NCBI GenBank assembly: GCA_030428785.1
Contig: JAUIEF010000005.1
Location: 10,919-74,918 of the forward strand
DNA: 64,000 nucleotides
Source of the DNA: a bacterium
GTDB lineage: Bacteria > Planctomycetota > B15-G4
Reading direction: 5' to 3'
A program made the translations under genes and the position numbers. Below the pieces are notes generated by a model. It searched no databases. It was not told the origin of the DNA and saw only the letters and a list, made by a program, of their open reading frames with translations. The stretch's first letter is position 1; the number at the start of each line of letters is the position of its first letter. This document shows positions 48,676 through 59,181 of the stretch, in pieces.

Positions 48676-50205
48676 TCAGTCGAGCGGGCCGACGACGCGC
48701 TCCGCCGCCGCGACGAGGCTCCCGTCGCGCACGCGCGCCGCGACGGCCTCGATGTCCGTGGACAGGACCCGGTCGCGGGTGAGCGGCTTCAGGTCCGCGC
48801 GCAATGCCTTGCGCACCGCCTCCACCGCCGGCGACGCCTTGAACCGCTTCTCGAACGCGAGCCCGTGGAACGCGGCCATGAGCTCCACCGCGACGACGTA
48901 CGTCACGTTGTCGACGATCTGCCGCGCCTGACGCGCCGCGTGCGTCGCCATGGACACGTGGTCCTCCTTGCCGGCGGACGTCGGCACGGAGTCGACGGAG
49001 GCCGGGTGCGCGAGCACCTTGTTCTCCGACACGAGGGCGGCCGCCGTGACCTGCGCGATCATGAGGCCGCTGTTGAGGCCGCTGCCGTGCGCGAGGAACG
49101 CGGGCAGGCCGGAGAGGTCCGGGTTCACGAGGTTCTCGATACGACGCTCGGAGATGTTCGCGAGCTCGGCCACGGCGATCTTGAGCAGGTCGGCGGCCAC
49201 CGCGACGGGCTGCGCGTGGAAGTTGCCGCCGGAGAGCACGTCGCCCTCCGGGAACACGAGCGGGTTGTCCGTGACGGCGTTCGCCTCGCGCACGACGACG
49301 CCCTCGACGTACGCGAGCGCGTCCCAGCTCGCGCCGTGCACCTGGGGCGCGCACCGCAGGCTGTAGTTGTCCTGCACGCGCTCGCAGTCCTCGTGGGACG
49401 CGCGGATCTCGCTGCCTTCGACGAGCCGCCGCAGGTTCGACGCGACGCGTGACTGACCCTCGTGCCCGCGCAGGTCGTGGATGCGCGGATCGTAGGCCGC
49501 GTCCGTCCCCTTGTACGCCTCGAGCGTGCACGCCGTCGCGACGTCCGCCGCCTTCGCAAGCCGCCGTGCGCGCACGAGCGCGTCCGCGAGGATCGCCGTC
49601 GAGACCTGCGTCCCGTTGAGGAGCGACAGCCCCTCCTTGCTGTGCAGCCGAACGGGCGACAGGCCGGCGGCCTCGAGCGCCTCGCGCCCGCCCAGCTCGC
49701 GTCGCCCGCGCCACGCGCGCCCCTCGCCGATGAGCACGAGCGCCATGTGCGCGAGCGGGGCGAGGTCGCCGGACGCCCCCACCGAGCCTTGCGCCGGCAG
49801 CACCGGCACGACGCCGGCGTTGAACACGTCGACGGCGCGCTGGAGCAGCAGCGGCCGGACGCCTGACCGCCCGTGCGCCATGTTCGCGATGCGCAGCGCG
49901 AAGGCGAGCCGGCAGACCTCGCGCTCGAGCGGCGGGCCGACGCCCGACGCGTGGCTCCGCACGAGGTTCACCTGGAGGGCGCGCAGGTCGTCGTTCGAGA
50001 CGCGGACGGCGGCCAGCTTGCCGAAGCCCGTGTTGATGCCGTAGCAGACGCGGCCCTCGTCCATGGCGGCCTCGACGACGCGCCGGGACGCCCGCACGGC
50101 CTCGAGCGTGCCCTCGTCGACGGCGAGGCGCGGAGGACGGGCTCCCAGGAGGGCGGAGAGGTCGTCGAGCTGCAGCCGTTCGCTGCCGAGGCGGAGGGTG
50201 GGCAT
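48676..50205 (-). CDS. hutH: Histidine ammonia-lyase
   Basis: YGINTGFG, MIO motif GASGDLAPL, KEGLSLLNGT, QDNYSLRC, HASSVD-like SVDSVPTSAGKEDHVSM. Confidence 0.97.
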   Translation of the reverse strand: MPTLRLGSERLQLDDLSALLGARPPRLAVDEGTLEAVRASRRVVEAAMDEGRVCYGINTGFGKLAAVRVSNDDLRALQVNLVRSHASGVGPPLEREVCRLAFALRIANMAHGRSGVRPLLLQRAVDVFNAGVVPVLPAQGSVGASGDLAPLAHMALVLIGEGRAWRGRRELGGREALEAAGLSPVRLHSKEGLSLLNGTQVSTAILADALVRARRLAKAADVATACTLEAYKGTDAAYDPRIHDLRGHEGQSRVASNLRRLVEGSEIRASHEDCERVQDNYSLRCAPQVHGASWDALAYVEGVVVREANAVTDNPLVFPEGDVLSGGNFHAQPVAVAADLLKIAVAELANISERRIENLVNPDLSGLPAFLAHGSGLNSGLMIAQVTAAALVSENKVLAHPASVDSVPTSAGKEDHVSMATHAARQARQIVDNVTYVVAVELMAAFHGLAFEKRFKASPAVEAVRKALRADLKPLTRDRVLSTDIEAVAARVRDGSLVAAAERVVGPLD

Positions 50206-50284
50206 GGCGCACACGATGGATGCCGGGAGCCTCCCGGGTCAACGCCATCTTGCGCCCGCGGCGAGGGGCCGGATCATGCGTGCC

Positions 50285-52978
50285 ATGGGAGGTCAGGTCG
50301 CCCGCCGCCTCGCGCTCCTCGGAGCGATCCTGCTGAGTGCGCCGTCCGTGTCCGCGGAGCGCGTGTTCTCGGAGTTCGACCTGCTGGGCTGGCGACGGGC
50401 GGGCGTCGTGAGCGTCGAGGCCGGGGCGCTGGAGGGCGGCACGGTCGCCGACCTGCTCGACCGGAGCGTCGCCACGGTGGCGGACGTCCCGTCGCGTGTG
50501 ACGCTCGTGTTCGACACGCCGCAGCTCGTGCGCGACGTGACGCTCGTCCCCGGCGGGACCGATCGCGTCGACGTCACGCTCACGGTGGTCGCGGAGGACG
50601 GACGCCGGTTCGCCGCCGGCGAGGAGTCGGTCGCCGACGGACGTCACGCCGTCTTCCACCTGCTCGACGTGCTCACCGACCGGCTCGAGTTCGCCGTGTC
50701 GCGCCCCGGCGGAGGCGCCGTGCCGGTCGCGGGCGTGCGCGTGCTCGGCGCGCTCGACGTCGACCGTCTGAACCTCGAGGGCGTCCCCGACGCGCTGCCG
50801 GAGGGCGGCGCGTTCCCGCTCGTCGTGACGGGCCGCGACTCGTTCGGCGGTCGGCCCGACCTCACGTCGCTCGTGCGCGTGGGCGTGACACCGGCGCGCG
50901 CGGTGAGCGTGGAGGGCGGCCGCCTCGTCATGCGCGCGAGCGGGCCGATCACGCTCGCGGCGCACCTCGGCGACCTCGAGAGCCCGCGGCGCGACCTCAT
51001 GGTCCAGAAGCTGCTCGCCGCGCCCGCCGCGCCCGCGCTCACGCCCGGACACCGCCAGATCCGCGTGCACCTCGAGGGCGAGCCGCCGTTCGAGGTGTTC
51101 CGGCGTCCGCCGGGCGGCAAGAGCGGGCGTGCGATCGGTCGCGCCGACGGCCACCTCTTCTTCGACGACGACGTGGAGCCGGGCTCGGCGCACCAGTACT
51201 CCGTCCGGCGCATCGACGCGTTCGGCAACCCGCTCACGGAGGTGAGCGCGGAGACGCGCGGGCGCGCGCACTCGCAGCGCCCCGCCGGCGCGCTGGACCT
51301 GGGTCGCCTGCCCGTGCTCGTCGTCGTGTACCAGGACTCGCTCGAGGGCGGCGCGGAGGAGGCCCGGCGTATCGAGGAGAGCCTGGAGGCGGCGCGACTC
51401 TTCGTGTTCCGTCACTCGGCCGGGCGGCTGCACCTCGACCTCACCTTCCTGCGGCGCTCGGGGCCGACGCCGTCGACGGCGGGCCCGACGATGGCGCTCG
51501 TCGAGCGCGACCTGCGCCGCCACGGCATCGCGGACGACGCGTACGGGCTGGTGTTCGTGCTCGCCGGGGACCTCGACGGCTCGTGGGGCAACTTCTCGCT
51601 GCTCGGCGGGACGGCGGGCGCGTTCGGGCGCGATGCGAGCGTGCCCACGCCGCCCGGCGCGCTCGGCCCCGACCCGGCCGCCGCGTGGAACTTCGTCCAC
51701 GAGCTGCAGCACGTCCTCAACGACCGCGTCGCGGCATCCGTCGGCGTCACCGGCCTGCCCACGGGCCACTTCGACCAGGACTACGCGACGGGTCGGCTCG
51801 GCGGCTCCGGCCTCGTGCTGGACGTGGGCGAGGCGTGGGACGGCCAGGCCGCGCTCCTGCGGCTCACCGAGTCCTGGGCCGAGGTCGGTCCGCCGTTCCG
51901 ACGTCCGCACGAGACGGTGGACGCGGACGGCGACGGCTTCCCGGACGACGACCCCGCGCTCGCGATCGACGAGGCGCGCTACGGCAGCTCACCGACGACC
52001 GCCGACACGGATGACGACGGGCTGGGCGACCTCTCGGAGCTCATGGCCGGTCTCTACGGGGGCACAGACCCGACCGCCCCCGACACGGACGACGACGGCC
52101 TGCGCGACGGCGACGACCCGTGGCCGCTCTCCGACTTCACGGGCCGCATCCCGCACGGCGACACGCCGGCGTTCGTCGCCGCCGGGCCGGACCCGCGCGA
52201 CCCGGCGGTGCGGCTCGACGCCGGCTGGACCGCGTCCGCGCTCGTGCTGCGCGTCGCGACGCGCGCACCGTGCGACGTGTTCCTCGACCTCGACGGGAGC
52301 GGCGCGCTCGGACGCTGGGAGACGGACACGCTCGTCGGCGTCGGCGACGACGACGCGTCGACCGGTGGGTCGGACGTCTACGCCGGCCCGGCGCGCCTGT
52401 CGATCCGCGCGCACGAGGATCCGACGGGTGTCTACGTCGGCCAGCGCCCGCTACCCGAGGCGACGCTCGTCGCGACCGAGGAGGACGGCTGGAGCGTGGT
52501 GACCGTGACGCTCCCGCCGGCGCTCGGCCCCGGCGCGTCGGACGTCCACGTGCGCGAGGGCGCGACGCCGGCGGACGGCCTGCGTCTCGAAGCGGGTCGC
52601 GTGCTCGGCCTGGGCGTCACCGTGCACGCCTCGACGGCCGGGCTCGCGCGCGCCTTCGACGCCTGGCGCGACGACGTGCCGTGGGTCAGCCTCTTCGAGC
52701 CCCACCGCCTGCTCGACGCGACGCTCGCGGCACCGGAGGAGACCGACGCGCCGGACGGGGAGCACGCGCCCACGGAACCTGTCGGGGAACCGGCCGGGGA
52801 AGCGGCCGACCCGAGCGAACCGGACGAGGTCCCGCAGGACGGTGCCGACGACGGTGCCAGCGACGTCCCCGACGAGGACGCGGCGGGCGCCGACGACGAC
52901 ACGAGCGGCGCCGACGCGGCCGCGGACGACGACGCCGGGACACCGGCGGAGGACGGCGGGAGCGCCGCGGCCTCCTGA
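50285..52978 (+). CDS. Large secreted multidomain protein with HExxH motif, Ca-binding DxDxDG repeats and acidic tail
   Basis: Signal peptide; HELQH; DADGDGFPD, DTDDDGLGD, DTDDDGLRD; Asp/Glu-rich C-terminus. Confidence 0.7.
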   Translation: MGGQVARRLALLGAILLSAPSVSAERVFSEFDLLGWRRAGVVSVEAGALEGGTVADLLDRSVATVADVPSRVTLVFDTPQLVRDVTLVPGGTDRVDVTLTVVAEDGRRFAAGEESVADGRHAVFHLLDVLTDRLEFAVSRPGGGAVPVAGVRVLGALDVDRLNLEGVPDALPEGGAFPLVVTGRDSFGGRPDLTSLVRVGVTPARAVSVEGGRLVMRASGPITLAAHLGDLESPRRDLMVQKLLAAPAAPALTPGHRQIRVHLEGEPPFEVFRRPPGGKSGRAIGRADGHLFFDDDVEPGSAHQYSVRRIDAFGNPLTEVSAETRGRAHSQRPAGALDLGRLPVLVVVYQDSLEGGAEEARRIEESLEAARLFVFRHSAGRLHLDLTFLRRSGPTPSTAGPTMALVERDLRRHGIADDAYGLVFVLAGDLDGSWGNFSLLGGTAGAFGRDASVPTPPGALGPDPAAAWNFVHELQHVLNDRVAASVGVTGLPTGHFDQDYATGRLGGSGLVLDVGEAWDGQAALLRLTESWAEVGPPFRRPHETVDADGDGFPDDDPALAIDEARYGSSPTTADTDDDGLGDLSELMAGLYGGTDPTAPDTDDDGLRDGDDPWPLSDFTGRIPHGDTPAFVAAGPDPRDPAVRLDAGWTASALVLRVATRAPCDVFLDLDGSGALGRWETDTLVGVGDDDASTGGSDVYAGPARLSIRAHEDPTGVYVGQRPLPEATLVATEEDGWSVVTVTLPPALGPGASDVHVREGATPADGLRLEAGRVLGLGVTVHASTAGLARAFDAWRDDVPWVSLFEPHRLLDATLAAPEETDAPDGEHAPTEPVGEPAGEAADPSEPDEVPQDGADDGASDVPDEDAAGADDDTSGADAAADDDAGTPAEDGGSAAAS

Positions 52979-53055: not shown

Positions 53056-53622
53056 CTAGCCGGCTGACGCGTCGGCGGCCTCGGGCTCGTCGACGGAGCG
53101 CATGTTCTCGTAGTCGCGGTCGTCCGCGGCCGGGTCGAACTGGAAGATGCCCGCCACGAAGTCGAGCACCTCGCCGACGCGCACCTCGAGGTCGATGCCG
53201 ATGAGCAGCATGAGCTGCGCGCGGAACGTCAGCAGGTCGAGGTCGAACTCGCCGGTCGCGGGCTGGAAGCCCATGCCGCCCTCGCCGAACGTCCAGCCGT
53301 AGTCACCGCTGTAGTAGTCGAGCGGCGGGCCGATCTCCTCCTCGTGGTGGCCGACGAGCAGGCCCCAGCTCCGGATGGACTCGCGCCACGCGCCGACGGC
53401 CCGGTTGTGCCAGCCCCACGCGAAGGTGTTGTGCGTGTACGCGCCGCCCAGGTGCAGCAGGCGGGTGGCCTCGGCCTTGACGGCGATGCCCGGCCCGAAC
53501 ATGAGGTGGACCCTCAGGATGTCCGAGAAGTCCGCCACGCGGTTCACGACGTAGTTGTCGCGGGTCGCGCAGGCGGGGAAGACGAGCAGGGACGTCAGGA
53601 GGCAGGCTGCGAGGGCTCTCAT
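53056..53622 (-). CDS. Hypothetical lipoprotein
   Basis: MRALAACLLTSLLVFPAC lipobox; coding-like codon usage. Confidence 0.65.
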   Translation of the reverse strand: MRALAACLLTSLLVFPACATRDNYVVNRVADFSDILRVHLMFGPGIAVKAEATRLLHLGGAYTHNTFAWGWHNRAVGAWRESIRSWGLLVGHHEEEIGPPLDYYSGDYGWTFGEGGMGFQPATGEFDLDLLTFRAQLMLLIGIDLEVRVGEVLDFVAGIFQFDPAADDRDYENMRSVDEPEAADASAG

Positions 53623-53932
53623 GGAGGCTTCTCTACGTGGGTGGTCCGAACCGGCGTCGGGAGTCTTCTGTAACAACCCGCCGGGGGCGAACCAACCGCG
53701 AGCCCTCCGCCGCCGCGCGGCCGCCGAGCCGCCGCGGACGACGCATGCGCGACCAACCATGTGACGGAGCGGGGCGCCGGCCGTCGGGCCCTCGCGGGAG
53801 CCTCCGCGGAGGCGGGGTTTTCCTCACAAACCTCGCGGTTCGGCCGGTTCCGGCCGTTATTCTCCGCCTTCGGTTGCCCCCGGGGCCGCCAGCGTCCACG
53901 TGAGTTCTCGTCCGAGTCCGAAGGAGAGCGAG

Positions 53933-54115
53933 ATGTCCGACAAGGAAAGCTTCATCATCGGCAGCAAGGTCAAGGCGATGCTGAAGGCGAAGGGTCTGAT
54001 GTGCTCCGGCGAGCTGCCGGACGCCGTGTCCGCCAAGGTCCGCGAGATGCTCGAGGCCGCCTGCGAGCGCACGACGGCCAACAAGCGCTCGACGGTCCGT
54101 CCGCACGACCTGTAG
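53933..54115 (+). CDS. Bacterial histone-fold protein (60 aa, single histone fold)
   Basis: MSDKESFIIGSKVKAMLKAKGLMCSGELPDAVSAKVREMLEAACERTTANKRSTVRPHDL; RBS aaggag; alpha1-alpha2-alpha3 pattern with R-x-T-V-x-x-x-D histone signature. Confidence 0.88.
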   Translation: MSDKESFIIGSKVKAMLKAKGLMCSGELPDAVSAKVREMLEAACERTTANKRSTVRPHDL

Positions 54116-54126
54116 GCCCCTGCCGG

Positions 54127-54212
54127 CCGCGCGTCGCCGCTCGACGCGCGGCGTTCCCCGGAGACGGGGGCGAACCCCGGGCGGGGGATCGATCGACGAG
54201 CCCCCGCCCGGG
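54127..54212 (+). terminator. Two strong hairpins immediately after the histone gene
   Basis: ccgcgcgtcg / cgacgcgcgg (54127-54151) and cccgggcggggg / cccccgcccggg (54176-54212). Confidence 0.5.
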
Positions 54213-54222
54213 CACGCGCCGG

Positions 54223-55275
54223 ATGTCCGAACCCCGTTTCCTCTTCTCGCCCGTCGACGCCGATCCGGCGCGCACGCTCTACGTCGACGGCACCGAGGCG
54301 GGTTTCCGGAACCTCAGTCACTGGCCCGGGAACAGCACGCCTCCCCCGCTCAAGCGCGACCTGAGCACCGGCATCGCGCTCGCCTGGGCCGCGCTCGCGC
54401 CGCAGGAGCGGGAACGCGTTCTCGGTCCGTTCGACCGGGTGGCCAACAACCACTACGACACGGACGGCGTGCTCTCGTGCTGGGTCGCGACGGCGCCCGA
54501 CCGGATCGCGGCCGTGGGGGCGTCCGAAGGCGAGACGGCCGAGACCCTGCGCCGGGCGGCCGCCACGGGTGACTTCGGCACCTGGAACGGCCCCGACGCC
54601 CTGGCCCTCGAGCTCACGCTCATGGCGTTGCCGGACCACCCGGGGTCGCCGGTGCCGCGGGGCGCTCCGGACGGCCCGACGGAGGCCGCCGACGCCCGTC
54701 GCAAGGCGGACTGCTACCGCTGGGCGTTCCAGCACCTCCCGACCCTGCTCGAGGACCCGTTCCGGCACGCGGTCCTCTGGCGACCGCGGTTCGACGCGAT
54801 CTGCGCGGACGTCGAGCGCGTGGAGCGCGGCGAGGACCTCGAGGTGGACGACTTCCCCGCCGAGGACCTCGCCGTCGTCCGCGCGCCGCGGGACCTCACC
54901 CGCATCGGGCTGCACCACGCCGCCGGAGACCGGAGCCGCGTGCTCCTCGTGTGGACGGACGGCGCCGGGACGCGTTACCGGTTCCTCGACCGCGTCGAGT
55001 CGTGGTTCGAGCTCGTGAGCCGGGACGTCCCGGCGCGCGTGCCGCTCACGACGCTCGTCGACGCGCTGCGCCGGCGCGAGGGCGCGGCCGCGGGCGACCC
55101 CGTGACCTGGTGGCGCACGCCGCTCACCGTGCCCGTGGCGCAGCTCGGGTTCTCCGACCCGGCCGCCGCGGGCGACGGGTTCTCGGACGACCCCGGAGTC
55201 GACGGCTTCCCGCCGAGCCGTCTGCCCGAGCCGGAGGTCGTGGCGATGCTGCGCGAGGCGCTCGCCGCCGGCTGA
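54223..55275 (+). CDS. Uncharacterised protein (DUF6687-like, possible DHH-related phosphoesterase)
   Basis: VDG...LSHWPGNSTP, NNHYDTDGVLS, AATGDF; family name recalled, not searched. Confidence 0.6.
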   Translation: MSEPRFLFSPVDADPARTLYVDGTEAGFRNLSHWPGNSTPPPLKRDLSTGIALAWAALAPQERERVLGPFDRVANNHYDTDGVLSCWVATAPDRIAAVGASEGETAETLRRAAATGDFGTWNGPDALALELTLMALPDHPGSPVPRGAPDGPTEAADARRKADCYRWAFQHLPTLLEDPFRHAVLWRPRFDAICADVERVERGEDLEVDDFPAEDLAVVRAPRDLTRIGLHHAAGDRSRVLLVWTDGAGTRYRFLDRVESWFELVSRDVPARVPLTTLVDALRRREGAAAGDPVTWWRTPLTVPVAQLGFSDPAAAGDGFSDDPGVDGFPPSRLPEPEVVAMLREALAAG

Positions 55276-58284: not shown

Positions 58285-59181
58285 TCAGACGAGCGGCGGC
58301 ATGAGGGTCAGGCGGTACGCGCCGACCTCCTGGAAGCCCACCTTCTCGTAGGCGCGCCGGGCGGCCTTGTTCCGCTCGTCGACGTGGAGCGCGATGAACG
58401 GCAGCTCCTCGCGGCCGAGCAGGTCGCGGCAGAGCGTCCAGAGCGCGCGGGTCGCGATGCCCTCGCGGCGCAGGTCCTTGGGCGTGTAGACGCCCTCGAG
58501 GAGCCCGCCCTCGGCGCCCGAGACGGCCATGTCGGCCTTGAAGACGGGGCGGCCCTCGGCGTCGCGGCAGAGGTAGGCGCGGCCCTCGACGACCTTCTCG
58601 GTCATGCGCAGGCGGTAGTGGCGGCGGTCGATGGCCGCGTCCTCGAGCTTGAGGTCCTCGGCGACCATCGCGCAGGCCAGGTCCGTGAGCTCGTCGATCG
58701 AGTCGAGGCTCGCCTGCTCCATGTCGATCTCCTTGATGCCCTTCTTGGCGATCGTCGAGGAGTCGATGGTGTAGTAGGTCTGCTTCCGGTCGAGCACCGG
58801 CTTGCGGCCGCTCTTCTTCTTGTACTTGGAGAGGAACTCGCGGCCGGCGTTGAACTCGCTCACCACGATGCCGAACAGGTACCCGGCCTCGAGGATCGGC
58901 TCCACGAACTCGGCGGCGACCCAGGGCTCGTCGACGCTCAGGACGAGCGTCCCCGTGTTCCCGATGAAGAGCAGGCCGCGGAGCGACTGGTCCTCGTCGT
59001 AGGCGCCCAGGAAGCGCCCGTGGGAGGGGTGCCGGGTGTCCGTCATGCCCCCGCGCTGGATGCGGGAGATGAGGAAGACGTTCTCGCGGGGGTCACCCCG
59101 CAGGAACGCCAGGGCGACGGCCGCGGGGACCTTCTCGGTCACGCGGAGCGAATGGGCGGCTTTGGTTGCGCTGATGGCCAT
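58285..59181 (-). CDS. GNAT family acetyltransferase (DUF4081-type N-terminus)
   Basis: GVYTPKDLRREGIAT acetyl-CoA motif, NKAARRAYEKVGF. Confidence 0.8.
   Translation of the reverse strand: MAISATKAAHSLRVTEKVPAAVALAFLRGDPRENVFLISRIQRGGMTDTRHPSHGRFLGAYDEDQSLRGLLFIGNTGTLVLSVDEPWVAAEFVEPILEAGYLFGIVVSEFNAGREFLSKYKKKSGRKPVLDRKQTYYTIDSSTIAKKGIKEIDMEQASLDSIDELTDLACAMVAEDLKLEDAAIDRRHYRLRMTEKVVEGRAYLCRDAEGRPVFKADMAVSGAEGGLLEGVYTPKDLRREGIATRALWTLCRDLLGREELPFIALHVDERNKAARRAYEKVGFQEVGAYRLTLMPPLV

Follow-up and report, generated by a model that had tools for sequence, protein, structure and literature searches.

A probable face-to-face histone, akin to HLp of Leptospira, encoded by a single-copy core gene of a planctomycete class

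Face-to-face (FtF) histones are defined by a torus-shaped tetramer, and their conserved residues in the protein D4GZE0 are R41, N45, R47, T49 and D54 (Schwab 2024, PMC11390915). HLp of Leptospira perolatii, which has an orthologue in L. interrogans, is a tetrameric DNA-wrapping histone (PDB 9QT0, 9QT1 and 9QT2), in which the contacts between dimers are made by R49, N53 and R55, and the clamp is formed by R55 and D62 (Hu 2025, PMC12701072). The bacterial dimer histones are devoid of the R and N residues of tetramerisation (Schwab 2024, PMC11390915). Planctomycetota have been listed with the principal bacterial phyla in which FtF histones occur (Schwab 2024, PMC11390915; Hu 2025, PMC12701072), and both their occurrence in this phylum and their phylogenetic persistence there have already been published (Hocher 2023, PMC10627809; PMC11390915; PMC12701072). 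The novelty implied in the earlier note on this DNA is thus not sustained, and the present instance adds no new concept. The histone described below is a correct identification and an uncharacterised member of the published FtF family.

The window, i.e. the whole stretch of 64,000 nucleotides analysed, carries at 53933-54115 on the forward strand an open reading frame of 60 codons and a stop, encoding the protein MSDKESFIIGSKVKAMLKAKGLMCSGELPDAVSAKVREMLEAACERTTANKRSTVRPHDL. The product has 11 K+R against 8 D+E residues, a pI of 9.1 and a mass of 6.5 kDa. A Shine-Dalgarno sequence GAAGGAG, read directly at 53920-53926 on the same strand, lies 6 nt before the ATG; the basic protein of 60 residues with a strong ribosome-binding site, as first noted, is borne out by these data. 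The same ATG and an equally spaced GGAG-type site are found in 12/12 orthologous loci of the family, while the sequence further upstream diverges. On account of this conservation, a GTG-extended frame of 71 residues was ruled out as the product. The assignment of the gene to the singlet α3-truncated histone fold of the face-to-face, HLp-like type draws on its translation, phmmer, profile, AlphaFold2 and Foldseek results, and on its codon changes.

The possibility of a chance open reading frame in GC-rich DNA, or of a recently transferred mobile gene, was weighed against the pattern of conservation. The GC content of the window is 73%, and as a result long spurious frames abound in the list for the region around the locus, many of them overlapping it. 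The histone gene and its same-genus orthologue are, however, separated by 28 nucleotide differences, resulting in 24 synonymous-only and 3 non-synonymous codon changes, and the GC3 of the frame is 0.90; the gene is under purifying selection. The conserved synteny, the agreement of the gene tree with taxonomy and the blank phage and plasmid searches also speak against a chance or mobile origin, which is refuted by the conservation pattern and retains a negligible probability.

The search of PDB sequences by phmmer with the single sequence placed HLp of Leptospira perolatii (9QT0) at the top (E 1.7e-12, 50 bits), followed by HBb of Bdellovibrio (8FVX, 8CMP; E ∼8e-3, 20 bits) and the archaeal FtF histone HTkC (9F2C; E 0.035). 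A family profile built from the alignment of 41 relatives of the planctomycete histone recorded 91.4 bits for HLp (E 3.9e-25), 43.7 bits for HBb (E 3e-10) and 38.6 bits for HTkC (E 1.1e-8). The Pfam models CBFD_NFYB_HMF (15.4 bits, cut-off 21.4) and DUF1931 (PF09123; 14.8 bits, cut-off 21.8, the model being covered only partly) remain below their thresholds, and the NCBIfam search with the protein gave no match. This explains why the relatives are named 'hypothetical protein' in NCBI records; some are 'histone H3/H4' at JGI. A real FtF histone thus stands behind a 'hypothetical protein' annotation, having been missed by Pfam and NCBIfam at their thresholds. Among the representatives at 50% identity, many top-scoring relatives (P0067-P0082 and others) are 118-160 residues long and match the query twice, being natural doublet (pseudodimeric) forms of an FtF-like fold.

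The AlphaFold2 monomer model, built from the same alignment, has a pLDDT of 88.6 and comprises α1 (10-19), L1 (20-27), α2 (28-49), L2 (50-56) and a one-turn α3 (57-59). This layout agrees with the α1/L1, long α2 and L2/α3 elements proposed from the letters, including the Arg-Asp clamp, located at R52-D59. Foldseek ranked HLp first (TM 0.89/0.95, rmsd 0.7 Å across 56 residues), then HTkC (TM 0.85) and HBb (TM 0.86, rmsd 0.9 Å), and then eukaryotic H3/H4, NF-Y and TAF folds. The histone fold put forward earlier is thereby upheld, with HLp, HTkC and HBb as its best matches.

Residues were mapped from the alignments, the HLp number being that of the planctomycete histone plus 3. R49, N53, R55 and D62 of HLp correspond to R46, N50, R52 and D59, and the residues invariant across the 41 relatives are S11, K12, K14, A43, R46, N50, R52, S53, T54, V55 and D59. 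The tetramerisation residues of the FtF class (R48 and N52 in its logo) are hence present as R46 and N50 in all of these proteins, and the RxTxxxxD motif, consisting of the Arg-Asp clamp and the L2 threonine, as R52, T54 and D59. The chain ends with D59-L60-stop, one residue past the clamp aspartate, a position from which the terminal carboxylate could contact the Arg in the facing dimer, and all 41 relatives carry L or I at this position. The α2 helix (28-49) is shortened and α3 is cut to 3-4 residues (57-59), as in the FtF class, and the closest sequence neighbours fall in the bacterial FtF cluster, as evident from the profile bits and from the Leptospirales adjoining the clade in the gene tree. 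Other histone classes differ: R and N are missing from the bacterial dimer type, HBb having S and D in their place; nucleosomal archaeal histones (PF00808) have an α3 of ∼10 residues as compared to the single turn here, where the Pfam score is also below threshold; and the DUF1931 pseudodimers contain two folds in ∼138 residues, whereas the present protein is a singlet of 60. Hallmark residues, spacing, fold and C-terminus all agree with the FtF class, so that the protein belongs to this class at the level of sequence and fold, and by homology to HLp the protein is predicted to form the tetramer and to wrap DNA.

A reading in which the protein acts in the manner of HBb, as a dimer that bends or coats DNA and forms no wrapping tetramer, has some grounds, as HBb is also a significant relative and its structure fits the monomer model nearly as well as that of HLp. 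It is nevertheless unlikely, since R46 and N50 occur in the protein and in all 41 relatives, at the positions where HBb has S and D and whose R/N pair is missing from dimer histones (Schwab 2024), and the profile score of HLp is twice that of HBb. The earlier proposal of closest similarity to the Leptospira face-to-face type is in line with these comparisons, HLp exceeding HBb by 50 to 20 bits with the single sequence and by 91 to 44 with the profile, while R46, N50, R52 and D59 are invariant. It is thus concluded with good confidence that the gene encodes a singlet α3-truncated histone of the bacterial FtF subgroup, an orthologue in kind of the Leptospira protein HLp.

The correspondence with HLp extends to its DNA-contacting residues. 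A13, S14, K15, K17, K21, T27, G29, T56 and T57 of HLp align with G10, S11, K12, K14, K18, C24, G26, S53 and T54; 6/9 are identical, and 2 more are conservative changes. This match is suggestive of the wrapping of ∼60 bp of DNA without sequence specificity. By homology to HLp, two chains would associate through antiparallel α2 helices into a head-to-tail histone-fold dimer, and two such dimers would join at both ends into a closed, torus-shaped tetramer, held by R46, N50, R52 and the C-terminal carboxylate of L60. The DNA would then run around the rim of the tetramer, with predicted contacts at the paired helix ends (G10-S11-K12), the α1 lysines (K14 and K18) and the L1/L2 bridge (C24, G26, S53 and T54).

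An alternative is that the histone fold serves a role outside chromatin, for example as a transcription factor with specific targets or as an adaptor between proteins that is tied to the neighbouring DUF6687 gene. The latter, of 350 codons at 54223-55275 on the forward strand (Pfam PF20392, E 1.3e-45), is co-oriented with the histone gene and adjoins it in 12/12 family loci; its protein gave no solved relative in the structure search and no match in NCBIfam. NF-Y and TAFs are among the weaker Foldseek matches, histone folds do serve outside chromatin, and prokaryotic histone-fold proteins are not necessarily all global organisers (Schwab 2024, PMC11390915). Against this role, the adjacency is lost beyond the family (0/14 order-level loci), whereas the histone itself is retained throughout the class and in half of the phylum; strong hairpins lie between the histone and DUF6687 genes; and the residues matching the DNA-backbone contacts of HLp are the most conserved ones. 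A non-chromatin function is accordingly judged improbable, and a functional coupling of DUF6687 to the histone was ruled out, its adjacency being limited to one family. The assignment as an FtF chromatin protein is preferred, and the gene neighbourhood provides no argument for a functional module.

The local order comprises a gene for a protein of 971 residues (+), a lipoprotein-like gene (−), the histone (+), DUF6687 (+), xseB and xseA (−), a thioredoxin-reductase-like gene (+) and a GNAT gene (−). The order of lipoprotein-like gene, histone, DUF6687 and xseB is kept in 12/12 family loci, and the 971-residue gene was seen in 6/12 within the 1.5-kb flanks fetched. The 971-residue protein (50063-52978) belongs to no Pfam family and, together with the lipoprotein-like protein of 188 residues (53056-53622), is retained beside the histone in two of the order's families. 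Several relatives (L008-L012) carry a tandem duplication of the lipoprotein-like gene, and its product matches the model of the Leptospira adhesin LIC13411 weakly, with 20.8 bits against a cut-off of 150. The GNAT acetyltransferase gene (298 codons, 58285-59181, reverse strand) lies ∼4 kb from the histone gene and shows no link to it.

The region upstream of the gene contains a candidate −10 element, TATTCT (53858-53863, forward strand), 75 nt upstream of the ATG; it is the sole TATNNT in 300 nt, and its presence agrees with the box reported earlier at this position. A single TATNNT, mostly within GTATTCT and at −51 to −101 from the ATG, occurs within 300 nt upstream in 10/12 family loci, as compared to a chance expectation, estimated from base composition, of ∼0.1 matches per locus. 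The σ70 consensus scan found no full promoter upstream of the histone, so that the promoter function of TATTCT is given here as an inference, for which the box is a good candidate. Directly upstream of it, a GC-rich inverted repeat CGGCCGG-TT-CCGGCCG (53841-53856, forward strand) is possibly an operator over the −35 region, or a product of chance in GC-rich DNA; several orthologous loci (among L002-L011) have short palindromes at the same place, each with a different sequence. The 14-bp perfect palindrome GCCTCCGCGGAGGC, previously described as flanking the gene, is present at 53800-53813, but is not conserved in the two same-genus loci; it is probably not functional, and a regulatory role was ruled out by its absence even within the genus. 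The 5' UTR of the histone shows no structure beyond chance (z 0.38).

Downstream of the gene, the first hairpin past the stop codon (54126-54152, forward strand) has an 11-bp perfect stem and a 5-nt loop, and is specific to the genome of the window. It is followed, ahead of the DUF6687 gene, by an element at 54156-54212 on the forward strand that is a candidate for the termination or stabilisation of transcripts and is composed of a small hairpin (54156-54169) and a long one (54176-54212) with a 16-bp stem (94%). The two downstream hairpins of the initial description are therefore found at 54126-54152 and 54176-54212, together with the small one. The sequence of the element, CCCCGGARACGGGGGC-N-CCCGGGCGGGG...CCCCGCCCGG, is kept across three genomes of the genus (the window's own, L002 and L003), and hairpins follow the histone stop codon in 11/12 family loci. 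The 107-nt spacer past the stop has a folding energy of −75.1 kcal mol−1 (z −3.49), and 0/200 shuffled sequences were as stable. A REP-like repeat or a known RNA was ruled out, as the element has one match in the genome of the window and the Rfam search on the hairpins gave no match. The hairpins are followed by no T-run, and the terminator scan found no site downstream of the gene; the element could act either in termination, though lacking a U-tract, or as the leader of DUF6687. As read from the DNA, the start codon, Shine-Dalgarno sequence, −10-like box and hairpins fit a discrete, efficiently translated transcript, the strong expression proposed earlier being putative, and the gene probably has its own promoter (with the conserved GTATTCT box), a strong ribosome-binding site and stable hairpins after it.

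The histone gene is present as a single copy in the 5.68-Mb metagenome-assembled genome (MAG) of the window, which is 85% complete. It was found in 36/41 relatives and in 18/19 of the high-quality genomes, in 29/30 genomes of the class with completeness of at least 85%, and in 198/401 genomes sampled across the phylum, i.e. about half. Its identity declines with taxonomic distance, from 93-95% between members of the genus to 68-85% in the family and 40-61% at the level of the order. In the gene tree the families are recovered (support 94/93 for family f1), and 7 changes of family label are needed, where the minimum is 6 and shuffling gives 16.6 on average. This agreement with taxonomic families points to vertical descent, the histone gene belonging, as a single copy, to the core genes of its planctomycete class. 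Phage and plasmid relatives were searched for and none was found, which ruled out a phage or plasmid origin.

Three genomes of one sister family (G022, G025 and G028) contain a second, much more divergent copy (E about 1e-11). Close relatives also occur in L030 (JBLIMM010000044.1), L040 and L049, from MAGs titled Pseudohongiellaceae, Myxococcales or Nitriliruptorales at NCBI; the contig of L030 is that of G015, which is placed in the window's own family, so that at least the title of L030 looks like a mislabelling or misbinning. A relative of 100 residues (L054, G285:C1:2064139-2064315), from a single-contig genome of the same phylum that is 99% complete, has an N-terminal tail of ∼45 residues made of AKKT repeats, resembling linker histones.

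HU/IHF (PF00216) was not found in the window's own MAG. Two such genes occur in each of both same-genus genomes, and the family is present in 37/41 relatives and 399/401 genomes of the phylum; at 85% completeness, the genes lie almost certainly in the unassembled parts of the MAG. Replacement of HU by the histone is ruled out by the presence of HU/IHF in both congeners and in these 399 genomes: the histone coexists with HU/IHF and does not stand in for the classical nucleoid proteins. The near-universal occurrence of HU/IHF in the phylum further suggests that the histone is not necessarily the principal chromatin protein; it probably acts as one abundant nucleoid-associated protein beside HU/IHF. 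The present analysis thus adds a planctomycete context to the family, in which the gene is a single-copy class core gene of vertical descent, found in about half of the 401 phylum genomes and alongside HU/IHF. Condensed nucleoids are a known trait of planctomycetes, which makes the histone there a reasonable target for chromatin work.

The two cysteines of the protein had been suggested to allow redox control. C24 occurs in 31/41 relatives, being replaced by T, S or V in the others, and its counterpart in HLp is T27, which contacts DNA; C44 is present in 17/41, being replaced by V, L, I or A, and aligns with L47 of HLp, a buried residue of the dimer core. The two positions do not co-vary across the 41 relatives, and a conserved disulphide switch is hence unsupported; the redox pair was ruled out on this ground and by the location of C44 at a hydrophobic-core position, contrary to the suggestion. 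The N-terminal tail in the family of the window is short (MSDKES) with a net charge of −1, unlike the lysine-rich tail of many bacterial FtF histones, and the more distant planctomycete relatives do have lysine-rich tails. C24 at the position of T27, together with the lack of a basic tail, might permit DNA wrapping to be switched by oxidation or modification of its thiol, a speculative idea with a slim chance of being correct; if true, it would make the protein a redox-responsive bacterial chromatin protein.

When compared to the known systems, the protein is closest to HLp, with ∼45% identity and 60 residues as compared to 63. Both have a shortened α2 and a one-turn α3, the R, N and R tetramer residues, the R-D clamp, the SKVK motif of the paired ends and the L1/L2 contacts, and both chains end in a hydrophobic residue directly past the aspartate. 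The differences are that HLp belongs to another phylum, and that the planctomycete locus has a lipoprotein-like gene and DUF6687 as neighbours and no conserved SMC, MAP or DUF350 neighbours. Leptospira lacks HU, whereas the planctomycete lineage has HU/IHF. T27, S52 and T61 of HLp are replaced by Cys, Ala and His, respectively, in the planctomycete histone.

The archaeal FtF histones HTkC of Thermococcus kodakarensis and D4GZE0 of Haloferax volcanii share the same α3-truncated fold (TM 0.85), and D4GZE0 has the identical R...N.R.T....D spacing (R41, N45, R47, T49 and D54; Schwab 2024, PMC11390915). HTkC differs by its 30% identity and 39 profile bits, and the archaeal proteins form a cluster apart from that of the bacterial FtF histones. 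HBb (Bd0055) of Bdellovibrio bacteriovorus (PDB 8FVX, 8CMP) resembles the protein in its α3-truncated fold, SKVK motif and RKT...D ending; unlike the tetramer predicted here, it is strictly dimeric, devoid of the two tetramerisation residues and only 32% identical. With HMfB and the CBFD_NFYB_HMF family, the histone fold and the RxTxxxxD motif are shared, whereas nucleosomal histones of the HMfB type have a longer α2, an α3 of 10 residues and a four-helix-bundle tetramer interface, and form hypernucleosomes.
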